Source: a phage. From it: a DNA stretch of 64,000 bases. Shown piece by piece: positions 32,196 to 47,650 of the stretch. Position 1 is the first letter of the stretch. The number at the start of each line of letters is the position of its first letter. The translations under genes were made by a program, and so were the position numbers. The stretch lies in sequence record PZ166176.1; one strand, 5' to 3'. Below the pieces are notes generated by a model that saw only the letters and a list, made by a program, of their open reading frames with translations, had not been told where the DNA came from and ran no database searches.

Positions 32196-32474
32196 TTAAA
32201 ATGGTTCGTTAGTCTCCATCATATATTCTGCTTCTAGTTCTTCCATATGCTTTCTAAATTGGAAAGCAATTTCTGCTACAGTTACATTTAAATCTTTTTC
32301 AAAAACTTCTGTAGAGCCTTCATAAAAACGAATACCGTCAATTAAAAGCCCTCCGTGGTAATCCCAATCACTTTCACGAGAAAGCGGGTTAGGCTCTTCA
32401 TAATAGTAATCCACCTCCACAACTAAGGCTTTCCCGTTACGAGTGGTGTATTCAAAATCAAAAGTGTTAATCAT
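32196..32474 (-). CDS. hypothetical protein
   Basis: 92 aa acidic ORF. Confidence 0.4.
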   Translation of the reverse strand: MINTFDFEYTTRNGKALVVEVDYYYEEPNPLSRESDWDYHGGLLIDGIRFYEGSTEVFEKDLNVTVAEIAFQFRKHMEELEAEYMMETNEPF

Positions 32475-33418: not shown

Positions 33419-33425
33419 ACTTCAC

Positions 33426-34373
33426 CTACAAACTTTCAATAACCTGGCGTCGCAACTCATTTGCATCTGCCAGATTATAATGTGTTCGAACATGTTCAGC
33501 CAAGAACAAGCCACGATCTTCCCGATAGTTTGGATTGCGAAGAAGCTTAACAATTTCGTAATGCCATTCTGCTTTGTTCTCTGCGTAAGCAACAGCACGA
33601 GCATCTACAGGGTTAAAATAAGGTAATACCTTAGAACAAACAATCGGAATACCCTTTGCTCCAGCTTCTAGGATTTTGAGATTACTTTTACAATTATTAA
33701 AATCATTATCTACCAAAGGAGCTATAGCAATAGCATGACTTTCGTAAACACTCATGTAATTATCTAAATCTTTTACAGCAGCTTTATATTTAGCATTTGG
33801 TAAATTTCTGCGAATCTTAATCCACTCTTGTCCCGTGATGCTCTGCGATGCTTCATATCCCGCAATAGTAAGAAGTTCATCATCGAAAGTATTAGAGACT
33901 AGTCGTAAATCGGGTTCGTGACTAGCACCGCCAGCCCATACAACAGGGGTACCGGATGAACGATCATTTGACAAAGTGAATTGTCCACTATCAAAAGGAA
34001 GTGCATTTCGGATCACAACAACATTCCTATTTAAGTGACGGATCTTATATGCCAAGTATTCCGTAGTCACAATAACCACATCAGCAAGCTTAACCATAGC
34101 CACAATAGCATGAGTGTTTGACTCGTATAAACTTGCTAAATAATGCTCTGGATTAAGTTGGTAAAAATCATCTAAATCTACAACAACCTTAACACCTTGA
34201 CGTTTCAAAGATAAAACGTATTCTGCACCTTTAGAGTGGATACGGTTAAACACAACAATATCTTTCTTAGGTTGAAAATTATTGTTGTTAAATGGCATAA
34301 CAATACGATGATAGTCACAACCGCTATGAGGTTTTGCATCAATTTTTAGTTTAGACCATTTTTTATTTGACAT
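33426..34373 (-). CDS. glycosyltransferase, GT-B-like (paralogue 2)
   Basis: 315 aa; co-linear similarity to 32474..33418 (HRIVMPFNN, VVDLDD, VWAGGASHEPDL, KSNLKILEAGAKGIPIVCS). Confidence 0.45.
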   Translation of the reverse strand: MSNKKWSKLKIDAKPHSGCDYHRIVMPFNNNNFQPKKDIVVFNRIHSKGAEYVLSLKRQGVKVVVDLDDFYQLNPEHYLASLYESNTHAIVAMVKLADVVIVTTEYLAYKIRHLNRNVVVIRNALPFDSGQFTLSNDRSSGTPVVWAGGASHEPDLRLVSNTFDDELLTIAGYEASQSITGQEWIKIRRNLPNAKYKAAVKDLDNYMSVYESHAIAIAPLVDNDFNNCKSNLKILEAGAKGIPIVCSKVLPYFNPVDARAVAYAENKAEWHYEIVKLLRNPNYREDRGLFLAEHVRTHYNLADANELRRQVIESL

Positions 34374-35046
34374 GTGCTAGTGCCTCCTCATAGGAAATTC
34401 GGATTTTCCCATTTTTAATATCCTCTAAAGATGCTTTATATTCTTCCCAGTTAATCCCGATAGCAGCTTCTTTCTCTTCTTTTGTCAGATTAGCAAAAGG
34501 CATAGGGTTGTTTCCAAAAACATCGTCTGGGTGGATATAAGCCATGATACGAAGTGGACAAGGTGTTGCCTGAATACCATGATTCAAACCAGCAGCTTTC
34601 AAACGGTGTCCCCATTCGGCATCTTCAAAACCATAACCGTGAGTGTAAGGGCGGAAATAACCCATCTTCTCAACAACGGCACGAGAATACATTGCAAATT
34701 GACACATTGCAAGTTCCCAGAGAATAACTTCTCCTTTGCTTCCAACAACTTTATCTTTGAAGTACTCCGGCATACCAAAGAAATCCCATCCTCCAGAAAC
34801 AGCTTGATCTACAAAGTATGTTTCCCATCCTTCCATGACTGGGTAGCAATCGTCGTCAAAAATAAACCAATAATCATAACCTTCTTCATAAAACTGGTGC
34901 ATAAGTTCATTCCTGGCATAAGCTACACCTTTACGGTCTGGATCGTTGAATACTCGAAAATCTGCACGTGGATCTGTTACAAGGTAGTCTTTAAGTGGGC
35001 GGACACCTACAGTGATAACACCCACTCCGATTTTAATATTTTCCAT
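34363..35046 (-). CDS. glycosyltransferase, GT-A-like
   Basis: 227 aa; acidic DxD-type region WFIFDDDCYP and YGFEDAEW. Confidence 0.4.
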   Translation of the reverse strand: MENIKIGVGVITVGVRPLKDYLVTDPRADFRVFNDPDRKGVAYARNELMHQFYEEGYDYWFIFDDDCYPVMEGWETYFVDQAVSGGWDFFGMPEYFKDKVVGSKGEVILWELAMCQFAMYSRAVVEKMGYFRPYTHGYGFEDAEWGHRLKAAGLNHGIQATPCPLRIMAYIHPDDVFGNNPMPFANLTKEEKEAAIGINWEEYKASLEDIKNGKIRISYEEALAHVK

Positions 35047-35054
35047 TTTCTCTC

Positions 35055-35618
35055 CTAAATAGTTTTACTGTGATCGTGACAGTGTAATAAATGATGTATA
35101 GACCGTTGAGGATTTGTTTGACCTAATCTGTAAATGTGAAACAGATACATTCCCCGCATCAATCCTAACCTCTTTCCTTTTTCATGTAAAGTGCGAGAGA
35201 AAATTAAGTCGAATTGGATAGATTTTTCTTCGAAATGAATTTCATTCCACAATGATTTTCTAAAAAGCAAAAAGAAACCTGCCAAAGGTGTTCCGAAAGG
35301 AACTTCTTCAACACTCACTTTATGATATTCTCTTGCAATCTTAGCATATTCTATATGGTTTAGAATATCTGGATCATCGTTAATTTGGTTAGAGAAAAGC
35401 TGATAACCACTGCCTAACCTGTTACAAGTTGCACCTATTACATCAAAAGGCGGGTTTGACATAACAAGCTCTTCAAGCATAGATGGTTGATCAGGTAGGA
35501 GGAACATTGTATCGGTATCTCTTAAACACACCCAACTATCATCTGGAAGAACGGCAATGGCTTCATTGATAGCCTTGCCGATATTTCCTGTCAGATAGGG
35601 AGTAATATAATAAATCAT
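35055..35618 (-). CDS. putative glycosyltransferase, GT-A-like
   Basis: 187 aa; LRDTDTMF DxD-like motif after a Rossmann-like N-terminus; weak. Confidence 0.3.
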   Translation of the reverse strand: MIYYITPYLTGNIGKAINEAIAVLPDDSWVCLRDTDTMFLLPDQPSMLEELVMSNPPFDVIGATCNRLGSGYQLFSNQINDDPDILNHIEYAKIAREYHKVSVEEVPFGTPLAGFFLLFRKSLWNEIHFEEKSIQFDLIFSRTLHEKGKRLGLMRGMYLFHIYRLGQTNPQRSIHHLLHCHDHSKTI

Positions 35619-35634
35619 TCTCCCCTCCGTTATA

Positions 35635-35826
35635 TTAACTGTCGGCTACAATCCCGCGTTTAATCATTTCCTGTTGGATTTGGATGACACGATCTCGTGC
35701 TTCCATGTATTCTTTAAAAGATTCTTGAAGATGGTCACGAGCTACGTCTCGTAGCTTAATCAGCTTGTCGTTTGTCACTTCTTGAAGAGAGATTTCGCCA
35801 GTTTCATTGGTCCCAAGCGTTTTCAT
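35635..35826 (-). CDS. hypothetical small protein
   Basis: 63 aa charged helical ORF. Confidence 0.4.
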   Translation of the reverse strand: MKTLGTNETGEISLQEVTNDKLIKLRDVARDHLQESFKEYMEARDRVIQIQQEMIKRGIVADS

Positions 35827-36034
35827 TTACAACCTCCTTAATAGCTACTGCACAGTTCTTACAAATACATTGACCTTTGTTCTTAGAAATTTCAATGTAA
35901 GGTTCATTTTCGTTTTCTCCGCGTCGTGAGTCGTATATTACTGTATTGAAGCAGACAACGCAAATGTTTTTAATAACGACATATTTTTGCACTTTCTGTT
36001 TAGTGCGAAAATTGACTTCAATGACTTCTCCCAT
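35804..36034 (-). CDS. small zinc-ribbon protein
   Basis: Start moved to the ATG overlapping the upstream stop (TGATG); CVVCF...CICKNC cysteine pairs. Confidence 0.4.
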   Translation of the reverse strand: MGEVIEVNFRTKQKVQKYVVIKNICVVCFNTVIYDSRRGENENEPYIEISKNKGQCICKNCAVAIKEVVNENAWDQ

Positions 36035-36318
36035 CAGTGAATCTCCCCTAAAATATTGTTTTGAGACATTACTGCGGAGCATTCTACAGCATCATGAGTC
36101 CTTGCAAAACGCTCCCACAACACAGCATCTACTTTAAGAACCATACAAGGATAAATACTGTCGTTGATCATGTCAATGCTATATTTATCTACATCCTTTT
36201 CATCTTCCATAAACAAAGTAGCGTATGCTTCTAAATGCTTACGGGTGTAGTATACATCCTCTTCAGTAAGACCGACAACCAGGTAACTTGCTACAACAAC
36301 AGTATTATCTTCTTGCAT
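36034..36318 (-). CDS. hypothetical protein
   Basis: Start moved to the internal ATG (MQEDNTVVV) one nt after the SleB-like stop, with an AGGGGAG RBS. Confidence 0.4.
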   Translation of the reverse strand: MQEDNTVVVASYLVVGLTEEDVYYTRKHLEAYATLFMEDEKDVDKYSIDMINDSIYPCMVLKVDAVLWERFARTHDAVECSAVMSQNNILGEIH

Positions 36319-36319
36319 T

Positions 36320-36841
36320 TTAACTCCCCTTTGGTAGATAGAAACCATGCACTTTATCTCGATAAACAAGACGCATATCACGTTCCCAGTGTGTCCTTAT
36401 ATTCCGTTTCTTGAAGTATAGAGCACCTTTAGTAACATCTAAAACAGACCGCAATTCAGGAAAATGTTTCTCTAAATAAAGTAAACGCTCCGCTATTGCT
36501 TTTGCTTCCTGCCACTTATCTTTCTCTGTTACGTTAAAAGTTTTCGCATATGAGAATTGTCCTTTCTGGAACAAGACTCCTCTGACTGTGTTAGGGAAGT
36601 AGGTATCATTTCTTCTGTTGATTACCACGTTCCCAACGGCATTCATTCCTTTTTTACCCAGACCGCGACCTTCTGCGTAAATTGCACAAGCTAATAGAAT
36701 TTTATCATTATATTGCTTTGTACATTTGTGAACTACTTTAGCGGTTTTTACGTTTGCAGCTTCGGCTTTCGCCACAACAGGTGTAAATGTAAAAGCAGTT
36801 AAGGATAGTAACGCAACTGTTACAAAGTTTTTTATCAGCAA
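36320..36841 (-). CDS. secreted cell-wall hydrolase, SleB / Hydrolase_2-like
   Basis: Signal peptide (LLSLTAFTFTPVVAKA) then LACAIYAEGRGLGKKGMNAVGNVVINRRNDTYFPNTVRGVLFQKGQFSY; apparent TTG start 7 nt after AAAGGAGG. Confidence 0.6.
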   Translation of the reverse strand: MLIKNFVTVALLSLTAFTFTPVVAKAEAANVKTAKVVHKCTKQYNDKILLACAIYAEGRGLGKKGMNAVGNVVINRRNDTYFPNTVRGVLFQKGQFSYAKTFNVTEKDKWQEAKAIAERLLYLEKHFPELRSVLDVTKGALYFKKRNIRTHWERDMRLVYRDKVHGFYLPKGS

Positions 36842-36873
36842 ATTTTGCCTCCTTTTTAAGTTAACGAATTTCT

Positions 36874-36902
36874 AGTATAGCACGATAGAGGCTTTATTGC
36901 AA
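36874..36902 (-). promoter_or_regulatory. sigma70-like promoter (TTGCAA-17 nt-TATACT)
   Basis: On the - strand: TTGCAA, 17 nt, TATACT, about 25 nt before the AAAGGAGG RBS; same -10 as the promoter at 30346. Confidence 0.5.
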
Positions 36903-36922
36903 GAGGGGTATTTCTCCCCCTC
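36903..36922 (-). terminator. hairpin downstream of the TerD gene (weak terminator candidate)
   Basis: GAGGGG-N8-CCCCTC hairpin between the TerD stop and the promoter; no clear T-tract. Confidence 0.3.
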
Positions 36923-36940
36923 AAAATCATTTGTTAATTA

Positions 36941-37543
36941 TTATGGACATTCATACCATTCTTTTTTACCACCGAAGGCCATCACCACATCACAAATATC
37001 CAGACCAGCTTTACCTACACCATATGCTTTCAGCTTCCATTCCCCATCTTCACGGACCAAGGAAGCCACGTGGCAGATTGTGTTGCCAGCTACTTCAGGA
37101 GCCAGGAAGTCAAAATCCAGAATTTCCACATTGCGCTCGGAGTCGAAGATTTTAAGCATACCTTCAGAAGCATGACCAAAACGTTTCAGACCTGTATCAT
37201 CATCAATGGTCAGAACAAAGGCAATCTCTTGTGCATCAGGAGAGATTTTAGCTAGAGTAATATCAATCTGCTCCATGCTGCCAGTTCCATCACGAACATC
37301 GTCACCAGCGAAGGTAGAACGTTCAGGATCAAACTTGTTAGCATAGCAAACCAGATGACGTGCAGACAGCATTTCAGGATTGCCAGCGGCATTGTGACGA
37401 CAAACCAGTGCACTTACATCCAGATCCAGTTTAGAATCAGATTTCCAAGAGAATTCAAGGCGCAGTTCTTTCAGAGCCGGAGCAACTTTCTTCAGGGAAA
37501 TTTTTTCGCTAGAGCCTTTTTTCAGGGAAATTTTATCAGTCAT
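36941..37543 (-). CDS. terD: TerD-domain protein (tellurite resistance TerD/TerE/TerZ family)
   Basis: 200 aa; co-linear with E. coli TerD as recalled from memory: ISLKKG...ISLKK vs VSLSKGGNVSLSK; LDLDVSAL vs FDLDASAF; GDDVRDGTG...IAFVLTI vs GDNRTGEGDG...IIFVVTI; EDGEWKLKAYGVG vs HNGEWKFRAVGQG. Confidence 0.85.
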   Translation of the reverse strand: MTDKISLKKGSSEKISLKKVAPALKELRLEFSWKSDSKLDLDVSALVCRHNAAGNPEMLSARHLVCYANKFDPERSTFAGDDVRDGTGSMEQIDITLAKISPDAQEIAFVLTIDDDTGLKRFGHASEGMLKIFDSERNVEILDFDFLAPEVAGNTICHVASLVREDGEWKLKAYGVGKAGLDICDVVMAFGGKKEWYECP

Positions 37544-37558
37544 CTTTTGTCTCCTCTA

Positions 37559-37828
37559 TTATTTAAGTGTAATACCAGTTACAGTCAATTCTACTTCCAA
37601 AAGCTTAGATGTGTTTTGGATTGATACTAATTGTGCATGATGGTTTAGTTCTACAGCAGAACAATCATTTTCCCCATCATCTACTTTTAAATAAACAATG
37701 ATTTCACTAAGGTCTAAACCATTTTCGTCAAATGCATTTTCATAGACGAAAGTATCTCCTACATCCAAATCTTTAATGGTAAGGCATCGTTTATTTACTT
37801 TTTGCTCATCAATTTCGAAGTTTAACAC
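37559..37828 (-). CDS. hypothetical protein (paralogue of 38850..39194)
   Basis: 89 aa; shares DLDVGDTFVYENAFDENGLD and a C-terminal LEVELTVTGITLK with the 114 aa ORF. Confidence 0.45.
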   Translation of the reverse strand: MLNFEIDEQKVNKRCLTIKDLDVGDTFVYENAFDENGLDLSEIIVYLKVDDGENDCSAVELNHHAQLVSIQNTSKLLEVELTVTGITLK

Positions 37829-38057
37829 TTCTTCCTCCTAATGTTATCTCCGGTTTGTATATACGAAGAATTATAGCATTTTCATTTTCTTTGTCAACCC
37901 ATTCTTCATAATCGGGCCATACATGAATCTCTACTCTACTTACAATATCTTCCATTCGCACAGTCCCAATGAAATACTCTTTGAGACTGCGCATAATGAA
38001 AGCTTCTCTCTCGCGCCAATAATTTTCTATGACTTGAGAGGCAAGCTCGTCGATCAT
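37809..38057 (-). CDS. hypothetical protein
   Basis: 82 aa ORF, ATGA-coupled. Confidence 0.4.
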   Translation of the reverse strand: MIDELASQVIENYWREREAFIMRSLKEYFIGTVRMEDIVSRVEIHVWPDYEEWVDKENENAIILRIYKPEITLGGRSVKLRN

Positions 38058-38848
38058 TTTTTAGCACCTACTTTAACAACCCACTCTCCGAACTCTTCAG
38101 ATAAGAGTTTGTCATAAAGCTCTGAATCTGTCAAGTCTAAATCTTTAATGCCAATAAAACCAACATTATCATAAGCATTTGCCAGTTCTTTCAGGAAGCC
38201 GAACTTCTCATTACCAACGCCAACCATGAACCAATAAATAGGTTTATTCTTATTCTCTTCGATAAGACGACGAACAGCACTAGGATCACCATTCTCACCA
38301 TCCGTCTGGAAGAATACAACACCAGGGGTAACGTCAGCACCTGGTTCAGATACAGCTACAACTTTTTCACGCTCTACAGACACTGTTTCAGTTTTACCAA
38401 GCAGACGATTAAAGAAGCCTTTCTTTGGAGCCTCCTCTTGTACCACTTGTTTAGTGGTAATATATTTAGTAACAGTGCCAAAATACTCATCGTAGATATC
38501 CGCCATTACAGGGGCGTAATTTGTTCCACCTCCGATACGAACATTACGCATACATTTGCCAACATAGTCATCGTAAACATCTGCTGTTGCTGGAGTAAGC
38601 TCTTGGGAACTCGTATTGAAGGCCCACATATCAATTTGTTGATTATCGTCGAACAGCATACCAAAAGGAAGCAGTTTACCTACAAAATCACTCACTACCC
38701 CACTAGAATATAGACCATGCATACTACCAGAAATATCTAGAGCACATGCTACACGAAGAACAATCTTACCTTCATTCAGGTTCTTATTCTTTTTCAGAGA
38801 GAAAGCAAGGTTTTCTTGACGTTTTTTCAGGCTGATTTTCTCGGACAT
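38054..38848 (-). CDS. von Willebrand factor A domain protein (TerY-like)
   Basis: 264 aa; MIDAS motif ACALDISGSM and FFQTDGENGD; N-terminus MSEKISLKK echoes the TerD N-terminus. Confidence 0.6.
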   Translation of the reverse strand: MSEKISLKKRQENLAFSLKKNKNLNEGKIVLRVACALDISGSMHGLYSSGVVSDFVGKLLPFGMLFDDNQQIDMWAFNTSSQELTPATADVYDDYVGKCMRNVRIGGGTNYAPVMADIYDEYFGTVTKYITTKQVVQEEAPKKGFFNRLLGKTETVSVEREKVVAVSEPGADVTPGVVFFQTDGENGDPSAVRRLIEENKNKPIYWFMVGVGNEKFGFLKELANAYDNVGFIGIKDLDLTDSELYDKLLSEEFGEWVVKVGAKK

Positions 38849-38849
38849 A

Positions 38850-39194
38850 TTATTTCTCCTTCTTAAGTGTAATATTGGTAACTTCTAAATCTACTTCCAC
38901 CATATTTGTATCTGGTGGGATGCAATGAGTATAGCCTCGTTGTGCTAGTGATCCATTAATACAAATCGCACTGTTTGTGGAATTTTTAATGAACACCAAG
39001 TTACGGTAGGTATCCAACCCTGCGTCTTCATAGGCATCATAATACATGAATGTGGCCCCTACGTCAAGATCTTCGAAAGCAATAGGTAAATCCTGACTTT
39101 TTTCTTCTTGAATATTGAATCTAAACACGCATACCTCCTCTACCAATTTTGAAGCCCAAATCGTAAGCTTCCTTAGTGATCTTTTGTAACTCAC
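38850..39194 (-). CDS. hypothetical protein (paralogue of 37559..37828)
   Basis: 114 aa; DLDVGATFMYYDAYEDAGLD and VDLEVTNITLKKEK; start uncertain (overlaps the upstream ORF). Confidence 0.4.
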   Translation of the reverse strand: MSYKRSLRKLTIWASKLVEEVCVFRFNIQEEKSQDLPIAFEDLDVGATFMYYDAYEDAGLDTYRNLVFIKNSTNSAICINGSLAQRGYTHCIPPDTNMVEVDLEVTNITLKKEK

Positions 39195-39684
39195 TTATAG
39201 GAAGTGTTACAAGAGGATCATCTTCTTCAATTTCCATCTTGTCATCTTCTGTTTCAATGAGAGTATTATGCACTTTGTGATAAGGGTTGTCAACACGTTT
39301 AAACTTATTCTTTTCTGTGCTGAAAAAACAATCTGGATCTTCTTCACCATCACCCCAACCTTGGTTAGGATCTCCGTCAGATTGTTCTGTAGGGATTTCA
39401 CCTGTAAAGTACTCTTCCAGCACCATAGCAATACCGTCCCTTGGATTTGAGGAATGCATTAAATCACAAACCTTACCCCAATCCATAGCCCATTCGAACC
39501 GTTCACGAACGCCATTTTCATCCTCCTTTCCAGAGAAAACACAACCATAACTATCATAGTTGCCATACATCTCTTCAATAACAACACCGTCCTTCAAAAG
39601 AAAGAGGTAGCAAGGTGATCCGTCGAAAGAAGTAGAAAGGGCAGCTTTGCCCGATTCTTTGCACAAAAAGCTAAAACAACCCAT
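39121..39684 (-). CDS. hypothetical protein
   Basis: 187 aa acidic ORF. Confidence 0.45.
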   Translation of the reverse strand: MGCFSFLCKESGKAALSTSFDGSPCYLFLLKDGVVIEEMYGNYDSYGCVFSGKEDENGVRERFEWAMDWGKVCDLMHSSNPRDGIAMVLEEYFTGEIPTEQSDGDPNQGWGDGEEDPDCFFSTEKNKFKRVDNPYHKVHNTLIETEDDKMEIEEDDPLVTLPISELQKITKEAYDLGFKIGRGGMRV

Positions 39685-39887
39685 TACAAACCCTCCTTCA
39701 GATTATCAAGAGCTACAGTGGTTTCACAAGAGTCTCCATAAGTTTTATGATGTTCCAGAAAAGCTTCGGGTCCACCCCAGTCATTATCTTGTGTATTCCA
39801 GCCATCAATAAAAGCATCTTCAATGATTGTGATCAGTTCTTGTCGGGTTAACTGGATAATATTAGGATCGTTATCGTAGTTAAACAT
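39684..39887 (-). CDS. hypothetical small protein
   Basis: 67 aa ORF. Confidence 0.4.
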   Translation of the reverse strand: MFNYDNDPNIIQLTRQELITIIEDAFIDGWNTQDNDWGGPEAFLEHHKTYGDSCETTVALDNLKEGL

Positions 39888-40053
39888 CTTCTTCCTCCTC
39901 TAAAATATGGAACCCGTAATTACAATAATCCTGAAAGGTTTCGTGCGCAAGATCTTCTATATCCTCTTGAGACATATCATCTTCAATTTCGATATCCACA
40001 ACCTCATTGCATCCACACCAAGCAGTTTCAATATTCACTCGTAATGTTTTCAT
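39880..40053 (-). CDS. hypothetical small acidic protein (57 aa, not in ORF track)
   Basis: My translation: MKTLRVNIETAWCGCNEVVDIEIEDDMSQEDIEDLAHETFQDYCNYGFHILEEEEDV; GGAGGAGGAG RBS; ATG overlaps the upstream stop; fills the gap. Confidence 0.4.
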   Translation of the reverse strand: MKTLRVNIETAWCGCNEVVDIEIEDDMSQEDIEDLAHETFQDYCNYGFHILEEEEDV

Positions 40054-40250
40054 TACTCCTCCTCCTCATTGAAGTCAATATCTGCAAGGAGTTCGAATTT
40101 ACGGAAGTTACGACAACCTTCATAAATATAACAATCACGACAAACTGCTAGAACACTTGCGGGATATATACCTCCCATCGGTGCGAATCGTTTTTCGTCA
40201 TCATAACGGACACCAATGTCTTCATCAATTATATAGATACGGATTCTCAT
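40053..40250 (-). CDS. hypothetical small protein
   Basis: 65 aa with Cys pair CRDC...C. Confidence 0.4.
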   Translation of the reverse strand: MRIRIYIIDEDIGVRYDDEKRFAPMGGIYPASVLAVCRDCYIYEGCRNFRKFELLADIDFNEEEE

Positions 40251-41359
40251 TTACCAAGCCCTCGTTTCACAGCAGCTACCATCCCGTCTTCCAGAGATTG
40301 AACTTCATTAATATAATCAACACGAGCAGCACGGGCTTCCGTATTGATGCGGTTAGTTTCTTCCAACATCTTAACCAAGTTTTCCTGATCGTGACGCAGA
40401 GTTTCAATATCCAACACTTGACGGTTAGCCAGTGCTGCTGCTTCGATCTGATTCTGTGTGGCAAGATCGCTACCCAGTTTAATTGCCAGGTTAAATTCAT
40501 CAAGAACGTTATTCTGCGTCTCTGCTGCTTTCATTTGACGTAAGCTCTCGATATACATTGAGAAGTTAGCAGAGTAAGCAGGAATAACATTATTTACTAT
40601 GTTACGCGCAGATCGCATTAAGCTTGCAGAAACTTTTTGCATACCTTGTACACGCGGTCCCATTTGGACACACAGTAGGCGCAATGCTTTTAAATCTGCA
40701 ATACGAATCTCCAGAAGATCCAAAGTATCTCGGATCACTTGTCGCTGTTCTACTGCATCTTCTGGAAGAGCAGCCAAAGCTTGTTCTTCTTTTTCATAGG
40801 TTGCTGTTAGAAGCTGCATATCTCGGTTCAAACTTGCAGCATATTGTCCAATAGCTTGATGCAGCTTTTCAAGATATACCAAGGAATCTTCTTCTTTGCG
40901 AATATCCATTTGAAGGTTCTTTACCAACTCTTCAATACGGTTATTAACATTATCAAACTCCCCGAACAGGTCTTCTTTCATACCCATAACTTTTTTAATG
41001 AGTTTAGTAATACCCTTGCTTTGTTTAATAGAGTTTGGATCAAGTTGTTTTGCCTGTTTAATCAAAGCTGTGAGTCGTTCACTCATCTGATCGCCTTGAT
41101 TACTACGTTGATGTTTTAACACCTCGGCATTCAAGGAACGCAAGGTTGTTCCTGCCTCTGCCCCAATCTCTTCAATCTCTTGTCGGGTCATAGAAGGCAA
41201 AACTGGAACTTCTTGCGGTGCCGCTGGTGCATAAACAGGACTGGCATCTAACACGCTTGGAGCGAATACAGATTTACTTGCATCTGTTGTTGCAGCGAAT
41301 ACACTCATTTCAGACTTCTTCTGACCACCAGTAGCTGCTTTTAAAAATGGACTTGTCAT
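40247..41359 (-). CDS. TelA-like toxic anion resistance family protein (candidate)
   Basis: 370 aa all-helical protein; segments LIKQAKQLDPNS, QMGPRVQGMQ...NVIPAYSANFSMYI and LDIETLRHDQENL resemble TelA/KlaB as I recall them; same strand as TerC and TerD. Confidence 0.45.
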   Translation of the reverse strand: MTSPFLKAATGGQKKSEMSVFAATTDASKSVFAPSVLDASPVYAPAAPQEVPVLPSMTRQEIEEIGAEAGTTLRSLNAEVLKHQRSNQGDQMSERLTALIKQAKQLDPNSIKQSKGITKLIKKVMGMKEDLFGEFDNVNNRIEELVKNLQMDIRKEEDSLVYLEKLHQAIGQYAASLNRDMQLLTATYEKEEQALAALPEDAVEQRQVIRDTLDLLEIRIADLKALRLLCVQMGPRVQGMQKVSASLMRSARNIVNNVIPAYSANFSMYIESLRQMKAAETQNNVLDEFNLAIKLGSDLATQNQIEAAALANRQVLDIETLRHDQENLVKMLEETNRINTEARAARVDYINEVQSLEDGMVAAVKRGLGK

Positions 41360-41946
41360 TCTTCATTCTCCTCTTCTGCATCTCTTATATATGGTGAAAC
41401 ACCGTACTCTTTAGCTACTTTAACCCAATCATCCCATTTATACAACCATAATTTTCCTTCAGTTCCTTCTTTATCTGATTTCAACCACATGTTAGGTTGC
41501 TTGCCTGGGTACATGCGATTAGGTTTACGATTATAACCTCTAACACATCTTGTCGCAAACCTATCTACCAGAACAAGAACATATTTATATTCGTGGTTCA
41601 ACGGCTCTTTGGAAGTGGCTTTAGGATTAGCCCCTAACTCTGCTGCCAGTTTTTGCCAATGAGCACCGTGTCTACTAAACTTACCCATACAACCATCAAT
41701 AGCATGAGCAATTTCGTGCTTCATTGTATCCACGATCATATCTCTTGTGGAGTTCTTATGCAAGTGCCAATTTACAACAACAATTTTATCTCGGTAGTTG
41801 CACCAACCGAAAGAGTTATTCACTTTGTTTCTAACACAAGCTTTATATCCTGCTTCACGTAACATGTTGTAGTAAACAGGAAAATCTTCTTTTATTTCCT
41901 GCATCACTTCCCACCACAAGAGTTGCAAGTCTCTCTCGGTATGCAT
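41356..41946 (-). CDS. SprT-like zinc metallopeptidase domain protein
   Basis: 196 aa; HEIAHAIDG...HGAHW zinc-binding motif after an N-terminal helical region. Confidence 0.5.
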   Translation of the reverse strand: MHTERDLQLLWWEVMQEIKEDFPVYYNMLREAGYKACVRNKVNNSFGWCNYRDKIVVVNWHLHKNSTRDMIVDTMKHEIAHAIDGCMGKFSRHGAHWQKLAAELGANPKATSKEPLNHEYKYVLVLVDRFATRCVRGYNRKPNRMYPGKQPNMWLKSDKEGTEGKLWLYKWDDWVKVAKEYGVSPYIRDAEEENEE

Positions 41947-41949
41947 AAC

Positions 41950-42543
41950 TTACACCTTAAAAGCGAAATGCGTGGTCGTGGCTTCAAAATCAGGGCCAGA
42001 TAAACTTGCACTGAAATCTGAAATATTTGTAATTAAAAAGCTTTTATGCATACCTAACACAGCCACGCTTTCAATATCTTCTACTAACATTTCAATCATG
42101 TTAGAAACATGGCTGAACGTATAGTTTTGTTTTTTGATGGTGTAGAAAGAAAGACTCCCACCTGCTGTATAAGATACCTCTTCAAAATCTTTAATCGTAT
42201 ATTGTGTGCCATCAGTAAAGAAAATGGTAGCTTTATTAGTAGCACGTTTCTTGTTTTTTGGTCCTTTTTTACGTTTACTGCGAGTAGGCAAACCGTTTGG
42301 AAATACTGTAGCTACAAATTCTTCAGGAGAAACCTCCTTACCGAAATCATAACCGTAAGAAACAGCGTCTATAAACTCGTCGTCTTCATTTTTAAAATAA
42401 TGAAAATAGGGCCAATTTGAGAGATTATCGAGCATCTTATGCTCATCCACAGCAGAGAACGTATCCCTCAAAGCACGTGTGATTTGCAAAGCATTAGGCA
42501 AACTTTTAACACCTGTAATGGAAGTACGAATAGAAATTGTCAT
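41950..42543 (-). CDS. hypothetical protein
   Basis: 197 aa with a basic Lys/Arg patch (RSKRKKGPKNKKR). Confidence 0.45.
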   Translation of the reverse strand: MTISIRTSITGVKSLPNALQITRALRDTFSAVDEHKMLDNLSNWPYFHYFKNEDDEFIDAVSYGYDFGKEVSPEEFVATVFPNGLPTRSKRKKGPKNKKRATNKATIFFTDGTQYTIKDFEEVSYTAGGSLSFYTIKKQNYTFSHVSNMIEMLVEDIESVAVLGMHKSFLITNISDFSASLSGPDFEATTTHFAFKV

Positions 42544-42557
42544 TGTTTTTCTCCTTA

Positions 42558-42995
42558 TTAACGTCGCTTGCTACGAGATGAACTCTTTTTACTTAAAGGG
42601 CTATTGTAAGATTTACGAGTTGTATAGCTACTATTTGTTTTAAAAGTTTGTCTCGGCTTTTCATAAGTTTTTATCTCTTGTTTAGGCTTACCATAAAAAT
42701 TAGTTTTCGGTTTAGGTGTATTATAATGCTTATTAATAATCGTTCTGTTATCGTTATAATCCCCACTGTTACGATTACTACCACCACTCATCATATGCCC
42801 TAACAACATACCTGTAGCAAACTCACCAACACCGCTACTACTAGAACCGCCACCATTGTTGATAATAGTTGTATCTCCGTCAGATCCTTGTTGAGCGTAT
42901 TGTTGAGGAGGTTGTTGGTATTGTGCAGGATTTGTTTCATCCTCGCAAGCTGTTAAAAAGATACAACCAATTAAAATCAGGGCTAGTTTTTTCAT
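42558..42995 (-). CDS. putative lipoprotein with Gly/Ser-rich region
   Basis: MKKLALILIGCIFLTAC gives signal peptide plus lipobox (LTAC); start moved to that ATG (alternative ATG at 43010). Confidence 0.5.
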   Translation of the reverse strand: MKKLALILIGCIFLTACEDETNPAQYQQPPQQYAQQGSDGDTTIINNGGGSSSSGVGEFATGMLLGHMMSGGSNRNSGDYNDNRTIINKHYNTPKPKTNFYGKPKQEIKTYEKPRQTFKTNSSYTTRKSYNSPLSKKSSSRSKRR

Positions 42996-43182
42996 ATTTG
43001 CTTTCCTCATTTTGACTATTAATACATCTGTGTTTGAAATCTCCAGAGAAGCAATAAAGTTGCTCTCCATCTCGGTATAAACTCACTTTACTGCCGTTGA
43101 TTACGCTTGTCAATACAAAAATTACAACAAACAACCCTATTGCAAAACAAATATTTTCAAACACAATCAACAAGTATTTCAT
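42937..43182 (-). CDS. small membrane protein
   Basis: 81 aa; N-terminal TM helix (LLIVFENICFAIGLFVVIFVLTSVI); 3' end overlaps the lipoprotein start in another frame. Confidence 0.4.
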   Translation of the reverse strand: MKYLLIVFENICFAIGLFVVIFVLTSVINGSKVSLYRDGEQLYCFSGDFKHRCINSQNEESKYEKTSPDFNWLYLFNSLRG

Positions 43183-43529
43183 TTTAAAAATACCTCATCA
43201 TCAGTTTCATTATCCCAGAAGAACAAATCCCAACCATTCGGATCATTCCATTTGGCTGCTGGAGAAGTCCATATTTGTTCGATATCAATATTCAAAACTT
43301 CACCGTTTCGTTTTGAAACAGCTTTAGTTAATTCCCAACGAGATACAGGCTCTACTTCCCCTGAACCACTCCCACAACAAGCTACCACGTTAGGAGGCAA
43401 ATTAATTGGATCTTTGGTCACGATCATAACGCTTACCCCAGGGTAAACTTTTGAAAGATAATCTAAAACGTAATCCACATCACCAGATAAATCCCAAACA
43501 AGTTCTTGAATTTCATCAAAATTATTCAT
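43179..43529 (-). CDS. hypothetical protein
   Basis: 116 aa acidic ORF with GGAGAG RBS. Confidence 0.45.
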   Translation of the reverse strand: MNNFDEIQELVWDLSGDVDYVLDYLSKVYPGVSVMIVTKDPINLPPNVVACCGSGSGEVEPVSRWELTKAVSKRNGEVLNIDIEQIWTSPAAKWNDPNGWDLFFWDNETDDEVFLK

Positions 43530-43536
43530 AAGTCTC

Positions 43537-43566
43537 TCCTATAAAATAGCCTCCCGAAGGAGGCTC
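43537..43566 (-). terminator. rho-independent terminator after the TerC gene
   Basis: GCCTCC-TTCG-GGAGGC hairpin followed on the - strand by TATTTTATA. Confidence 0.55.
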
Positions 43567-43571
43567 ATCTA

Positions 43572-44546
43572 TTAAACAGCAGCTTCTTCTTTTTCAGGGA
43601 AGATAAAGCTTGCAATAACACCAAGAGCTAATGTGCTTAGAACAATCATCAGACTTACGTTAGGGGAAATATCATGCGGGAGGAATGACCATTTGGCATG
43701 AAGTGTTTCACCGAACGGGTGATACATAAGTTTAGCACCGACAAACACCAGAACCACAGCAACAGCTTTCTCTAAGTGAACCAGATATTTCACAGCTACA
43801 CTTAACACAAAGAAAAGTGCACGTAAACCAAGAACAGCCATCAGCATTGCAGAATAAACTAGCAGAGGTTCTTGTGTCACACCGATCACAGCCGGAACTG
43901 AATCAAAAGAGAAGACAATATCTGTAAGCTCAATAACAAACACACAAAGAAGAGCAGGAGTTGCATATTTAATACCATTCTTAATGGTGATGAACTTTTC
44001 ACCATCCAGTGCATTGTGCACAGGCAGAACTTTACCTACTAAACGAACAGCCCAATGCTTAGAGTAATCAATATCCTCTTCTTCGTCACCACCTTTGATG
44101 ATAGCCACGGCAGACCAAGCTACAATCAAACCGAACAACACTTGGACCGACCAATGAAGGTTAAACAAAGCGGTCCCTGCTGCAACAAAAATACCTCGGA
44201 AGACAATGGCTCCTGCAATCCCCCAAAGTAAAATCTTATGTTGGAGATGTGTGCTCTTAATTCCAAAGCTTGCAAAAATTGCCATGAACACCATCAGGTT
44301 ATCTACAGAAAGACTCTTTTCCAACACATAGCCACTTAGGAAAAGCGCGGCAAACTCTTTACCATGTTCTACCCAAATGAATGCGTAATATCCTAAAGCT
44401 AAAGCAATCCAAAAAACAGACCAAAGCAAAGCAGATTTAATTCCAATTTCTTTATTCTCTTTATGACCAAAGAAATCGATACCAATAGACAATGCCAAAA
44501 TACCAACTAAAACAACTACATCAATAATTGGGAAACCAAGTTGCAT
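43572..44546 (-). CDS. terC: TerC family integral membrane protein
   Basis: 324 aa, multiple TM helices; LEKSLSVDNLMVFMAIF and ELTDIVFSFDSVPAVIGVT...LGLRALFFVL match the two TerC-family signature blocks. Confidence 0.8.
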   Translation of the reverse strand: MQLGFPIIDVVVLVGILALSIGIDFFGHKENKEIGIKSALLWSVFWIALALGYYAFIWVEHGKEFAALFLSGYVLEKSLSVDNLMVFMAIFASFGIKSTHLQHKILLWGIAGAIVFRGIFVAAGTALFNLHWSVQVLFGLIVAWSAVAIIKGGDEEEDIDYSKHWAVRLVGKVLPVHNALDGEKFITIKNGIKYATPALLCVFVIELTDIVFSFDSVPAVIGVTQEPLLVYSAMLMAVLGLRALFFVLSVAVKYLVHLEKAVAVVLVFVGAKLMYHPFGETLHAKWSFLPHDISPNVSLMIVLSTLALGVIASFIFPEKEEAAV

Positions 44547-44563
44547 TCTTTTCTCCTCTCTTT

Positions 44564-44582
44564 GCGGGGAACTATTCCCCGC
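44564..44582 (-). promoter_or_regulatory. 5' UTR stem-loop upstream of the TerC gene
   Basis: GCGGGGA-ACTAT-TCCCCGC hairpin between a putative promoter and the TerC RBS; no T-tract follows. Confidence 0.35.
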
Positions 44583-44594
44583 TTCATGTGATAC

Positions 44595-44622
44595 ATCTTA
44601 CTCTTTTTAAGAACTATGTCAA
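44595..44622 (-). promoter_or_regulatory. sigma70-like promoter candidate (TTGACA-16 nt-TAAGAT)
   Basis: On the - strand: TTGACA, 16 nt, TAAGAT, just after the stop of the 73 aa ORF and before the TerC gene. Confidence 0.4.
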
Positions 44623-44625
44623 CAC

Positions 44626-44847
44626 TTATTTTGTTGAATGAGAGGAAAAGATTCCTCGTAATACAGCCAGAATAAACGAAACACAAACCACGGTCCAGAA
44701 GGTTACTGGGACAGTGATATCTGCATGACCCATAACTTCAGCAACATAGTTGTAAGCCAGCAACAGTAACCAAGCTGGAATCAAACTAAGCATAAAAGCA
44801 ATAACAAAAAAGCTTACCACTGCAACAATACCTGCAAAAACACCCAT
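44626..44847 (-). CDS. small membrane protein
   Basis: 73 aa with two hydrophobic helices. Confidence 0.45.
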   Translation of the reverse strand: MGVFAGIVAVVSFFVIAFMLSLIPAWLLLLAYNYVAEVMGHADITVPVTFWTVVCVSFILAVLRGIFSSHSTK

Positions 44848-44859
44848 ACTAATCTCCTC

Positions 44860-45333
44860 TTAAAGTTTATAAATAGTCACATCGTGACCTGTTTTTACTA
44901 AAGTTTCTTCAATCATCACTTGGATGATAGCCCAATTACCTCCAGCATATCCAGCGCCAATCATAGGTAAGCCGATCTTACATTTTTTGTCACGGAGAAG
45001 CAAATCGTTAGCCATAGCTATTAGTGCATCGTAAAGTGCATCATAGTCCAACTGACGACCTTTAGCATTATATCCGTAACGGTATTGCCCGTATAGATTA
45101 TATACCAAAGGGTCTGATTGTTCGTCTGGCACCCCTAAACTAAAAGAACCTAACTTACTTTGATCACCAGCCATTGTGTCTAAATCTGCCGCATATGCAT
45201 AAGGGAATGCTCGTTTAATTTGCGGAGCAATTCCTGCTCCCATATTACACATACAATTGCAACAATGAGCAATAACAGTTACTTCACCTGCTTTAGCGGC
45301 ATCAATAAGATTACCTGTTTTCATTTTAAGCAT
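44860..45333 (-). CDS. macro domain protein (ADP-ribose binding/processing)
   Basis: Start moved to the ATG 6 nt after AAGGAG; GNLIDAAKAGEVTVIAHCCNCMCNMGAGIA and IGLPMIGAGYAGGNW match the macro domain Gly-rich blocks. Confidence 0.6.
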   Translation of the reverse strand: MLKMKTGNLIDAAKAGEVTVIAHCCNCMCNMGAGIAPQIKRAFPYAYAADLDTMAGDQSKLGSFSLGVPDEQSDPLVYNLYGQYRYGYNAKGRQLDYDALYDALIAMANDLLLRDKKCKIGLPMIGAGYAGGNWAIIQVMIEETLVKTGHDVTIYKL

Positions 45334-45346
45334 TTTTAGCTCCTTA

Positions 45347-46174
45347 TTACAGAATGTGTTGTTTTGTGTAACGATCCAAGAATTCAAAGTTTTCAGCATA
45401 CTTTGAAATTCGGTTGTAACCTTCTCCCAAACATCCGAAGAAAAGTTGCTCTACATAGTAGTGTGGCAATTGGCTAAGAATGATTTTGAAGTCTTCGTGA
45501 TTTTGGCCCATAAGATACTTAATAGGACGAACAAGGCACTGTGCATCACGTTCTTCATTAATCATTTTAACAAACGCTTCTGGTGTATTAATGTAGTTAA
45601 AATTCAGTTTAGCTTCTGTATCTGCTTGATTACCTTCATATTTTGCAAAATATAAGAAGTAAACATCATTTTTAACTTGATTTTCATCAAGGATCTCAAT
45701 CAGTTTGTCTTCATGAGTTCCAGTGATATTTACATCATCAATAAACACAAGCTTCTTATCACCCCAGAATTCTTTGTTGCAGTAGAATGTATCCCCATCA
45801 ATAAGTTTCTTACGACTAGCTTTATCCAAGAAACCATAATCGTTGATATAGCTAACTTTACGATGAATAATATCCAGTTCTGCTGAACGACCTTGATCAT
45901 ATTGTGATTGCAACATATTAAAGTAATTAATAAAATGATCTGTCATCATTGTTGCAGCATTATGCACATGGTTGTAAGGAGAAGGGATGATAACAAATTG
46001 TTCCCCAATATGTTTCATTGCCACTTGAGCAAAAAACTGAAGTGCCAATTCTTTACCCATACGACGCGCAGCCTGGTTACTACCAAATTTCAATTTTGAA
46101 TAATCTTTGATATCAAAAGTAGCAGTTTCCAGGTCATCAAATTTATTTGCAAAAATTTGAGTTTGATTACGCAT
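45347..46174 (-). CDS. phosphoribosyltransferase-domain protein (type I PRTase fold)
   Basis: 275 aa; KKLVFIDDVNITGTHEDK matches the type I PRT motif (hydrophobic x4-DD-x3-TGxT). Confidence 0.55.
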   Translation of the reverse strand: MRNQTQIFANKFDDLETATFDIKDYSKLKFGSNQAARRMGKELALQFFAQVAMKHIGEQFVIIPSPYNHVHNAATMMTDHFINYFNMLQSQYDQGRSAELDIIHRKVSYINDYGFLDKASRKKLIDGDTFYCNKEFWGDKKLVFIDDVNITGTHEDKLIEILDENQVKNDVYFLYFAKYEGNQADTEAKLNFNYINTPEAFVKMINEERDAQCLVRPIKYLMGQNHEDFKIILSQLPHYYVEQLFFGCLGEGYNRISKYAENFEFLDRYTKQHIL

Positions 46175-46823
46175 TTACAATTTCTCCTTTTTTAAGTTTC
46201 TCTAGTAAGTCGTTAGGGTTCTTAATATGACAGAAGTTAAATCCTAAGTCAACACATTTTCCATCATATTCTTCACTATCGCCTACGTGCAATACTTCGT
46301 GCCCTAACAGAGGGATCGGAGAATACGTGAGCGTGCGAGCAAAGAATCGCGGATCTGGTTTACAAAGTAAAGCTTCATCCGAGAAATGGGTGAACTCAAA
46401 ACAATTCCAACTATCAAACTTACAAGCACGACGCAGGATATCCCCTGATATGAAGTTGGTATTGCTCTTAATACTCAAATCATAACGCCCCGAAAGATAC
46501 AGCAAGTACATCGGCAGATCCACGGCTACGTGTGGTGGAAACTTAAGGAACCACTGTTCACACTCGAAACGAAGCTTTGCAGACTTCCAAGGCGTTATCC
46601 CAAGTTCAGAACCAAGTCTTTCCCAGGCGTATGCTGCACACTCGGCTTTGCCTTGAAGTGCTGCATTATCCAGTTCCTTTTTGATCTTCTTATAAGCTGC
46701 TCTTGCTTCCACTTCCGTAATATCTCCATATTTTGCGATAGTCCAGGCTCGCATATCTGCGTAATTGGAGTTTGCTGTGATCAGTGTGTTCCATACATCA
46801 AAAGAGATATGTTTAATAGTCAT
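46167..46823 (-). CDS. HAD-superfamily hydrolase (phosphatase-like)
   Basis: 218 aa; motif I ISFDVWNTL, KPDP motif and motif IV HVGDSEEYD. Confidence 0.5.
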   Translation of the reverse strand: MTIKHISFDVWNTLITANSNYADMRAWTIAKYGDITEVEARAAYKKIKKELDNAALQGKAECAAYAWERLGSELGITPWKSAKLRFECEQWFLKFPPHVAVDLPMYLLYLSGRYDLSIKSNTNFISGDILRRACKFDSWNCFEFTHFSDEALLCKPDPRFFARTLTYSPIPLLGHEVLHVGDSEEYDGKCVDLGFNFCHIKNPNDLLEKLKKGEIVNA

Positions 46824-46824
46824 A

Positions 46825-47430
46825 TTAAGCCCACCATGCGTCTAAGTTAAGATTACTGTCCACTACCACTTGTTCTATGTGGTAGCCTTTTATCTGTATC
46901 CCACTGTTCAAGAGCATATCATACGCTTCATTGAAACGCAACTTATCTTCTGCGGAATATAAGCGAGCATTATAAAATCGGTAATCAATTTCTTCAGCAT
47001 TAGAAGAAATACGGAAGAAGTTTGTTTCTACTTCGGGATCACTTGCTGAAGTCTTAATGTGAACTTCTCCGTAATTTTCTTTACTTAGATCCATGAAAAG
47101 AACACAGGCAACATGTTTAAACATTCGTTCCAGTTTGTAACGAACAACATTGAAACCTGCATTCTCAAGTTTTTCTACACACTGCAACATTAAAGTAGTG
47201 TCGAGATCGCTTTGATACTTTGTTAACATACGATCACGTTGAGACTTTGTATCCCGATATAAATCAATTGTTGTGCATTTGGCACCAATAATCTTAGCTG
47301 CTTTCATCAACTCTTCAGAACTAACGTTAGATAAAGTAAGATGAAAATGGGCTTTCCACACTTTTTTAGCAGGGACACCAAAAGAGTTATCTCCGCTGTT
47401 CGGCATGTTGACTACTACACTATGTTGCAT
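46825..47430 (-). CDS. hypothetical protein
   Basis: 201 aa ORF translationally coupled to the HAD gene; no motif assigned. Confidence 0.45.
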   Translation of the reverse strand: MQHSVVVNMPNSGDNSFGVPAKKVWKAHFHLTLSNVSSEELMKAAKIIGAKCTTIDLYRDTKSQRDRMLTKYQSDLDTTLMLQCVEKLENAGFNVVRYKLERMFKHVACVLFMDLSKENYGEVHIKTSASDPEVETNFFRISSNAEEIDYRFYNARLYSAEDKLRFNEAYDMLLNSGIQIKGYHIEQVVVDSNLNLDAWWA

Positions 47431-47445
47431 TACTTATCTCCTCAC

Positions 47446-47637
47446 TTAAAATGGAAGTCTTTGAAGTTCATCTCCTCCGATATCAAGTAATTTAGCAACA
47501 TCTCGATCAGAAAGCAACTCTTTTCTTTGTAAAATATCCACAAGGGTTGCAAGAATCTCCTTAACGTCCCGATCACTGTTCTTCAACAGTTCTCCTGCCG
47601 TCCCTACTCTATCTCCTACAGCAAAATATGTAACCAT
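47446..47637 (-). CDS. hypothetical small protein
   Basis: Start moved to the ATG 4 nt after AGGAGG (track start overlaps nrdG). Confidence 0.4.
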   Translation of the reverse strand: MVTYFAVGDRVGTAGELLKNSDRDVKEILATLVDILQRKELLSDRDVAKLLDIGGDELQRLPF

Positions 47638-47650
47638 GAAACCTCCTAAG

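Follow-up and report, generated by a model that had tools for sequence, protein, structure and literature searches.

The 64,000-nucleotide stretch analysed here (the window; sequence record PZ166176.1) comes from an Escherichia coli phage of the phAPEC8/phi92 group (Stephanstirmvirinae), genus Phapecoctavirus, and carries on one strand genes for TerD, a von Willebrand factor A (vWA) protein, TelA and TerC, components of the bacterial Ter systems associated with tellurite resistance and stress. It is close to certain that this block is the Stephanstirmvirinae version of the phage-borne Ter system. An initial annotation, made from the letters of the sequence, had recognized the four genes and set the limits of the module at 36941–44546. 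These limits proved too narrow, as comparison with other phages indicates that two genes upstream of TerC (45347–46823), encoding a HAD-superfamily hydrolase and a phosphoribosyltransferase (PRTase), belong with the Ter block. Beyond this boundary, the analysis adds the recurrent, non-obligate linkage of the HAD–PRTase pair to Ter genes in independent phage lineages, a lineage-specific degenerate metal loop in TerD, and a putative separate transcription unit for TerC.

Family assignments of the four Ter proteins

The four open reading frames (ORFs) are co-directional, as first annotated, all on the minus strand and with coordinates identical to those then assigned (Table 1). Their family assignments are upheld by Pfam profile scores far above the gathering thresholds: 98.9 bits against 25.3 for TerD (PF02342, E=3.2e-28), 138.3 against 27.8 for TerC (PF03741, E=3e-40), 115.7 against 30 for TelA (PF05816, E=3.2e-33) and 130.1 against 29.4 for the vWA protein (the vWA-TerF-like model PF10138, E=1.6e-37). 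TelA also matched the 'tellurite resistance' family phrog_5890 (E=1.6e-139); its Pfam domain covers residues 59–361, and the N-terminal stretch before residue 59 lies outside the domain. Over its full length, TerC scored 318.8 bits with TIGR03718, the Alx metal-homeostasis subfamily, against a cutoff of 246.4, and its acidic motifs, E76/D82/N83 and E206/D209/D215, are invariant in seven phage TerC proteins, some of them only 20% identical. The metal-ion-dependent adhesion site (MIDAS; DxSxS, T, D) noted earlier in the vWA protein is likewise well founded, its residues D38, S40, S42, T109 and D183 being invariant in five phage homologues. The description of this protein as TerY-like fared less well: it is a vWA protein, but the TerF-like PF10138 was the sole model above threshold (generic VWA, PF00092, reached 18.5 bits, below its cutoff of 23.8), and no TerY-specific model was compared.

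Searches by sequence for relatives of solved structure returned none for TerC, vWA or TelA. TerD matched the solved TerD structures PDB 2KXT and 3IBZ (E=1.5e-15), and its AlphaFold2 model (predicted local distance difference test score, pLDDT, 89.8) retrieved the same two folds in Foldseek with TM-scores of 0.67–0.78, bearing out the structural check that had been proposed for it. The locus therefore holds the functional core of a Ter system as set out in PMC7824862 after Anantharaman et al. (2012), namely a single TerD β-sandwich protein, TerC with its acidic motifs, TelA, a TerF-type vWA protein with its MIDAS, and linked PRTase and HAD genes; the components are conserved across virulent tailed phage genomes, as a phage-borne Ter system should be.

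The TerD protein has a shortened Ca2+-binding loop. The canonical motif, reportedly defined in the study of 2KXT, is GDN(R/L)TG(E/A)GDGDDE; the loop found here reads GDDVRDG--TGSME against the canonical GDNRTGEGDGDDE, with a deletion of two residues and SM in place of DD. The short-loop variant is kept in homologues down to 43% identity, and the canonical loop is present in more distant phage and bacterial homologues. Because five acidic positions are retained (D40, D42, D82, D85 and E91), it is possible that metal binding by the phage TerD is reduced instead of abolished. A Pfam scan found only this one TerD-domain ORF in the block.

The block is phage DNA and its gene order is conserved in phi92

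The Ter block is genuine phage DNA. It is 98–99% identical at the nucleotide level to published Phapecoctavirus genomes (phAPEC8, ESCO5/13, SF1-1, ZCKP1 and others), and the entire 7.6 kb block is contained in at least 62 phage records, which is a lower bound. Anaerobic ribonucleotide reductase genes flank it on one side, and genes for an endolysin, four glycosyltransferases and a primase/helicase on the other. GC content is uniform, at 0.37–0.41, and the GC content and GC skew of the block run on smoothly into the flanks. The alternative is that the block is host DNA, present as a contaminant or through recent capture, or else a misassembled prophage island; it has a single argument in its favour, namely that Ter genes usually reside on chromosomes and plasmids. 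It is refuted by these phage flanks and the even composition, by the position of the block, which phi92 and no fewer than 62 phage genomes conserve, by the lack of any tRNA gene in the window that might mark an integration site, and by the absence of matches in 5,426 complete E. coli genomes, whether these were searched with an extended 10.5-kb block (megablast) or with the TerC gene (blastn). We give it a negligible probability, and the earlier claim that the genes are phage-borne stands.

The Ter genes represent an old phage lineage, with no recent capture, and their proteins are far from those of host and plasmid ter genes. TerD is ∼31% identical to its counterparts on plasmids of Klebsiella, E. 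coli and other enterobacteria, and the closest non-phage match found, a TelA-TerD-TerD cluster on the chromid of Photobacterium sp. GJ3, reaches 36% for TerD and 28% for TelA.

In phi92 (NC_023693, gp172–gp187), which belongs to the sister genus Justusliebigvirus, the order is HAD, PRTase, macrodomain, TerC, TelA, vWA, TerD, endolysin and glycosyltransferases. Phapecoctavirus genomes (phAPEC8, ESCO13, SF1-1, ZCKP1) have the same genes in the same order, the four glycosyltransferases included, which answers the synteny comparison suggested for the block. Protein identity to phi92 is 81% for TerD, 79% for TelA, 71% for TerC, 67% for vWA, 65% for PRTase, 50% for HAD and 49% for the macrodomain protein. 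phi92 lacks a 201-aa protein, a 116-aa ORF (43179–43529) and a SprT-like protein, for which tblastn of the phi92 locus gave no match; phi92 in turn has a 200-aa ORF following TerD that is missing from the window. Since at least 62 phage genomes carry the block, and phi92 keeps the gene order at 50–81% identity, the block is taken to be conserved under selection for function in this lytic phage lineage.

HAD and PRTase genes recur beside Ter genes

The PRTase–HAD pair lies 800 nt upstream of TerC. The stop of the HAD gene overlaps the start of the PRTase gene by 8 nt, and the two are predicted to be translationally coupled. The HAD protein keeps the nucleophile Asp and motifs II–IV, with D9, S120, N121, K155, D182 and D187 invariant; its Asp+2 position is an invariant W11 (motif FDVWNTL) in ten of the ten homologues examined.

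Linkage of the PRTase to Ter was tested on contigs that encode PRTase homologues ∼48% identical to that of the window, all of them phage-like. The gene order is TerC-x-TerD-x-vWA-HAD-PRTase in contigs L003 and L004, and RNA ligase-TelA-vWA-...-TerC-x-HAD-PRTase-TerD in contigs L005, L011 and L013. Counting phi92 and its relatives, three independent phage lineages thus have the HAD–PRTase pair next to Ter, in shuffled gene orders. TerD is rare in phages, being found in 146 of 50,697 phage records (∼0.3%; PRTase in 157, TelA in 225), and because the adjacency nevertheless recurs in three lineages in different orders, comparison of the loci provides strong evidence for a functional link between HAD–PRTase and Ter. 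We infer that the module is larger than was first marked and includes both genes. The big unannotated proteins encoded in the Ter clusters of L003–L005 showed no homology to the ORFs of the window that lack an assignment.

The pair is also found with no Ter genes nearby, in Rhizobium phage TM61, Xanthomonas phage XaC1, contig L010, the T4-like contig L012 and a Sinorhizobium plasmid (positions of such loci are given in Table 1); the HAD gene is always paired with the PRTase gene. In T4-like and jumbo phage contigs, the pair without Ter adjoins a DUF2828/DUF7788 protein with a DTSGS motif and lies near RNA ligases. Alignment of this protein with the phage vWA profile (hhalign) gave a probability of 0.7%, which is not significant; the DTSGS motif aligns. 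HAD–PRTase may be a portable cassette with alternative partners. The four-gene core, in turn, occurs without the pair in contigs L015 (TerC-Band_7-TelA-vWA-TerD-SleB-like hydrolase) and L016 (TelA-TelA-vWA-TerC-TerD-TerD). The Band_7 (SPFH) membrane-scaffold protein is encoded inside the L015 cluster at 4332–5213, and another Band_7 protein near HAD–PRTase in L010 (870–1682).

TerC is predicted to form its own transcription unit

From 43529 down to 36941, fifteen ORFs are tightly packed, overlapping or separated by gaps of at most 15 nt. The four Ter genes do not form a single tight operon: about 15 small phage ORFs are interspersed among them, and TerC is bounded by a promoter and a terminator of its own. 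With these signals, TerC (43548–44622) is predicted to be a self-contained transcription unit, which includes a hairpin in its 5' untranslated region. Promoter, hairpin and terminator all have counterparts in phi92 (locus L002, 5933–7012), where the promoter at the equivalent place reads TTGACT-16-TATAGT, the terminator has another stem sequence, and the hairpin, GCGGAGGA-TTG-TCCTCCGC, differs from that of the window by two compensatory pair changes. Such changes suggest that the structure of the hairpin is under selection.

Bacterial TerC genes of the Alx subfamily (TIGR03718, 'riboswitch-controlled') are typically under a Mn2+ riboswitch. The phage hairpin is too short for a riboswitch and matches no Rfam family, and no Rfam match to the yybP-ykoY Mn2+ riboswitch was found ahead of TerC, either at the gathering score in the whole window or at E≤1 in 36000–48500. 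The phage gene thus resembles E. coli Alx in that its product scores above the TIGR03718 cutoff, but it has a sigma70-like promoter and a 19-nt hairpin in place of a riboswitch leader, and no similarity at the nucleotide level to any of the 5,426 E. coli genomes.

Relation to known Ter systems

The initial annotation had called such genes unusual in a phage. In this phage group, however, they are conserved and well known, having been annotated and published before, and a specialist will not be surprised to meet them. In phi92, proteins were labelled as tellurium-resistance membrane protein, toxic-anion-resistance protein, stress protein, phosphoribosyltransferase and hydrolase as early as 2012; several Phapecoctavirus GenBank records are annotated with TelA-like, TerC, TerD or VWA; and phi92 gp172, gp173 and gp178 figure as TerD/tellurite-resistance proteins in a study of the Intesti cocktail from 2015. 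Phage Ter systems were treated by Iyer, Anantharaman, Krishnan, Burroughs and Aravind (2021; PMC7824862), who described one as 'relatively complete', with PRTases and HAD enzymes, and mentioned 'certain other related smaller tailed phages' in passing. The roles that they assign are signal synthesis, sensing by TerD/TerB, a membrane response by TerC, and sub-membrane structures of TelA and TerF-type vWA proteins, and they propose that Ter is used against superinfecting phages. Comparative genomics by Anantharaman et al. (2012), as reported in PMC7824862, linked bacterial PRTases and HADs to Ter. The papers on PhiKp34 and PhiPsa374 describe the same four-gene set, and a 2026 study found terD genes highly transcribed in gut jumbo phages. 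The hedged suggestions of the initial annotation, envelope or metal-ion stress and superinfection exclusion, are the same as those of this literature.

The systems of PMC7824862 (Acinetobacter phage ME3, Caulobacter jumbo phages) have the same components as the present one: TerD, TerC, TerF-type vWA, TelA, PRTase and HAD. The present phage, at ∼150 kb, is smaller than those jumbo phages; its TerD, unlike theirs, has the shortened Ca2+ loop; and its module spans ∼10 kb, whereas TerD and PRTase are ∼27 kb apart in CcrColossus. In the virulent myoviruses Pseudomonas PhiPsa374 and Klebsiella PhiKp34, terC, terD, terF-type vWA and telA are likewise clustered, but the reports mention no PRTase or HAD, and TelA is only ∼23% identical to that of the present phage. 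The enterobacterial terZABCDEF operons (IncHI2 R478, E. coli O157, Klebsiella plasmids) have in common with the phage TerC, the TerD fold and the C-terminal vWA domain of TerF. They differ in having five TerD paralogues (TerZ, A, D, E, F) where the phage has one, in having TerB, which was not found among the phage ORFs scanned, and in lacking TelA; the Ca2+ motif of the phage protein is degenerate and TerD identity is the ∼31% given above. In Bacillus subtilis, the envelope-stress operon yceCDE-meeF(yceF)-yceGH joins TerD-, TerC- and TelA-family genes in one unit. Bacterial loci such as the yce operon and that of Photobacterium differ from the phage block in their several canonical-loop TerD paralogues and control by stress sigma factors, and the Photobacterium locus has no vWA, PRTase or HAD gene within 14 kb.

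Possible functions of the module

Our preferred reading, which we hold tentatively and give somewhat less than an even chance, is a membrane-linked role in superinfection exclusion or envelope stress. Host RNA polymerase would express the module soon after infection, and TerC, as an Alx-type divalent-cation transporter, would insert into the inner membrane, with TelA, vWA and TerD assembling beneath it. PRTase and HAD would make a nucleoside-like small molecule from phosphoribosyl pyrophosphate, which the complex would bind as a ligand or receive as a signal. The membrane of the infected cell and its divalent-cation state would thereby be altered; later phages and colicins would be blocked, and the cell envelope would be kept stable until programmed lysis. 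The reading draws on the published comparative-genomic model, on the reported ability of TerC-family proteins to export Mn and to supply exported enzymes with metal (PMC10550928), and on bacterial ter determinants, which are cited as inhibiting phages and colicins (PMC12054061); in the latter source a Klebsiella terC mutant gives larger plaques. Early expression is supported by the sigma70-like promoters and by the conservation in phi92 of the TerC promoter, hairpin and terminator. The block sits among genes of nucleotide metabolism and replication on the same strand.

Several observations weigh against this reading. The link between HAD–PRTase and Ter is not obligate, because the pair occurs elsewhere without nearby Ter genes. 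With Trp at the position of the Asp+2 acid/base residue, phosphatase activity of the HAD protein is not assured, and the degenerate Ca2+ loop of TerD may make the metal-sensing part of the model inapplicable here. No domain of TerB, the proposed ligand sensor, was matched in the 20 window ORFs scanned with Pfam (34363–47430, a scan that passed over several small ORFs in 35.6–36.4 kb, 39.7–40.3 kb, 42937–43182 and 47446–47670). The promoters are consensus matches only, of which 66 were found against 52 expected. None of the four Ter proteins matches a defence model of PADLOC-DB 2.0, and the same is true of the SprT-like protein, PRTase and HAD. Experimental tests of any phage Ter gene were not found in the literature searched, and both the PhiKp34 paper and the PhiPsa374 authors call the function of these genes unknown.

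The module might instead be a metal-homeostasis helper that adjusts Mn2+, Zn2+ or Ca2+ and has no role against competitors. It would rid the cell of excess cations, or provide metal to phage proteins that are exported or periplasmic, and so serve phage enzymes and envelope integrity. This would agree with the placement of TerC in the Alx subfamily above a curated cutoff, with its invariant acidic motifs, with the export of Mn and metalation of secreted enzymes by TerC proteins (PMC10550928) and with the contribution of Klebsiella terC to Zn and Mn resistance (PMC12054061). The ribonucleotide reductase genes that adjoin the block would also fit, as would the signal-peptide-bearing SleB-like hydrolase encoded after TerD in the window and again in the distant contig L015. 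Hydrolases of the SleB type, however, are not known to require a metal. A metal helper also leaves unexplained why TelA, vWA, TerD and the PRTase–HAD pair travel with TerC in several lineages; moreover, the Mn riboswitch was not found and the metal loop of TerD is degenerate. We consider this explanation rather unlikely. Similarly doubtful, though not exclusive of the preferred reading, is that two separate systems are neighbours here, the HAD, PRTase, macrodomain and 201-aa genes forming a cassette for nucleotide, nicotinamide adenine dinucleotide (NAD) or ADP-ribose metabolism, or for counter-defence. Without Ter, the pair stands beside a nicotinamide mononucleotide (NMN) adenylyltransferase (NMNAT)/Nudix gene in Rhizobium phage TM61; XaC1, L010 and L012 have it in the vicinity of genes for Nudix, macrodomain and RNA-ligase proteins, and the Sinorhizobium plasmid has it in a biosynthetic cluster. 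In the window, the macrodomain is weakly DarG-like, and TerC is set off from the pair by its own promoter. Against such a division, three independent lineages have the pair beside Ter, L005, L011 and L013 with the PRTase between TerC and TerD, and the bacterial comparative genomics reported in PMC7824862 ties such PRTases and HADs to Ter.

A counter-defence decoy, in which divergent phage Ter subunits would poison or bypass the Ter system of the host or of a plasmid, is in our view very unlikely. Host ter operons do inhibit phages and are often found on plasmids of enterobacteria (a TerD match is present in 2,317 plasmid records), and the phage TerD has lost part of its Ca2+ motif, as a dominant-negative subunit might. 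Many of these phages, however, are recorded as growing on E. coli K-12, which is not known to carry a ter operon; the TerC motifs and the MIDAS are intact, not crippled; ∼31% identity to plasmid TerD is poor for co-assembly; and the same core is found in phages that infect Caulobacter and Pseudomonas, two very different hosts. An extended form of the preferred reading would have the module be a self-contained membrane 'immunity organelle', installed by a strictly lytic phage, that excludes competitors, with a nucleoside-like ligand made by HAD–PRTase_3 and the pair acting as a portable cassette for different partners: TerF-type vWA, TerD and TelA in the window, and DUF2828/DUF7788 proteins (with a DxSGS motif) and RNA ligases in T4-like and jumbo phages. 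We regard this form as unlikely; if the portable-cassette reading were true, phage–phage conflict might follow a general logic of 'PRTase-made ligand plus vWA effector'.

Ter and TelA proteins have been linked to phage, colicin, metal and tellurite resistance, and many plasmids of pathogenic Klebsiella and E. coli encode them, but their mechanism has been obscure since the 1990s. A lytic coliphage that grows on K-12 and has a compact version, with one TerD, TerC, TelA, vWA and a putative two-enzyme ligand pathway, offers a convenient way into experiments. Such phages are also components of therapy cocktails, and because the annotation 'tellurite resistance' raises questions of safety there, knowledge of the function would be of practical value.

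Neighbouring genes and other features

The features of the block and its surroundings are collected in Table 1.

Table 1. Features of the Ter block and its neighbourhood in the window, and HAD–PRTase_3 loci of other contigs
Feature	Position	Strand	Match or remark
Four consecutive glycosyltransferase genes	32474–35618	minus	Downstream of block; conserved in phi92
SleB-like cell-wall hydrolase	36320–36841	minus	PF07486; N-terminal signal-like sequence; follows TerD
TerD-domain protein, short-loop variant, 200 aa	36941–37543	minus	PF02342
89-aa protein	37559–37828	minus	phrog_11278; directly upstream of TerD
Candidate sigma70 promoter, perfect consensus, extended -10 (TTGACA-16-TG-TATAAT)	37870–37897	minus	12/12 matches
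vWA protein, TerF C-terminal type, 264 aa, MIDAS intact	38054–38848	minus	PF10138
∼92-aa paralogue of the 37559–37828 protein	38850–39128	minus	phrog_11278; directly upstream of vWA
187-aa protein	39121–39684	minus	phrog_14928; between TelA and vWA
TelA-family protein, 370 aa	40247–41359	minus	PF05816, phrog_5890
SprT-like Zn-metalloprotease, HEIAH motif, accessory	41356–41946	minus	PF10263, E=4.2e-9
Predicted lipoprotein, lipobox MKKLALILIGCIFLTAC (FLTAC)	42558–42995	minus	phrog_21570, phrog_32479; between TerC and TelA
Intrinsic terminator (predicted)	43548–43565	minus	Directly 3' of TerC
TerC-family membrane protein, Alx subfamily, 324 aa	43572–44546	minus	PF03741, TIGR03718
8-bp hairpin of 5' untranslated region, GCGGGGAA-TAG-TTCCCCGC, 19 nt	44564–44582	minus	Precedes TerC ribosome-binding site
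Sigma70-like promoter of TerC, TTGACA-16-TAAGAT	44595–44622	minus	Consensus match
Macrodomain protein, probable start near 45338	44860–45399	minus	PF01661, E=7.6e-5
ComF-like phosphoribosyltransferase (PRTase_3), 275 aa, phosphoribosyl pyrophosphate-loop motif VFIDDVNITGT	45347–46174	minus	PF15610, E=1.7e-41
HAD-superfamily hydrolase, 218 aa	46167–46823	minus	phrog_14393; weak PF00702, TIGR02252
201-aa protein, lineage-specific accessory	46825–47430	minus	1 nt upstream of HAD gene
HAD–PRTase_3 locus without Ter neighbours	L010, 9345–12562		
HAD–PRTase_3 locus without Ter neighbours	L012, 7152–10825		
HAD–PRTase_3 locus without Ter neighbours	L009, 8333–11527		
HAD–PRTase_3 locus without Ter neighbours	L008, 4093–6420		

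The macrodomain protein, which gave weak DarG-like matches in PADLOC and elsewhere, is present in phi92 and absent from the Ter clusters of L003, L004, L005, L011 and L013; it is an accessory neighbour outside the conserved core. The 201-aa protein has invariant HxHxT and HxKT motifs, from which a 2H phosphoesterase was suspected. The stop of the SprT-like ORF overlaps the start of TelA. The predicted lipoprotein has a middle region rich in Gly, Ser and Asn and a basic C-terminus, and is weakly similar to phi92 gp180, which has an annotated signal peptide; the 187-aa protein is 76% identical to its phi92 counterpart (tblastn to the phi92 locus). The two small phrog_11278 proteins are 35% identical to each other (E=1e-15), and phi92 has a single copy, the one preceding vWA. 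The perfect consensus promoter falls within an ORF (37809–38057), upstream of the 89-aa ORF and TerD.

One of the four glycosyltransferases gave a sub-threshold match to the TET-associated glycosyltransferase family PF20691 (E=0.0012). A SleB-like hydrolase follows TerD also in phi92 and in the distant contig L015 (9888–10406), whose TerD is 53% identical. Finally, a block ∼99% identical to that of the window is found in records attributed to other hosts: MG065650 ('Campylobacter phage B15'), OP562383 ('Acinetobacter phage ABPW7') and MH252123 ('Klebsiella phage ZCKP1'). Such identity suggests that the hosts of these records are mislabelled or that coliphages contaminated the isolations.

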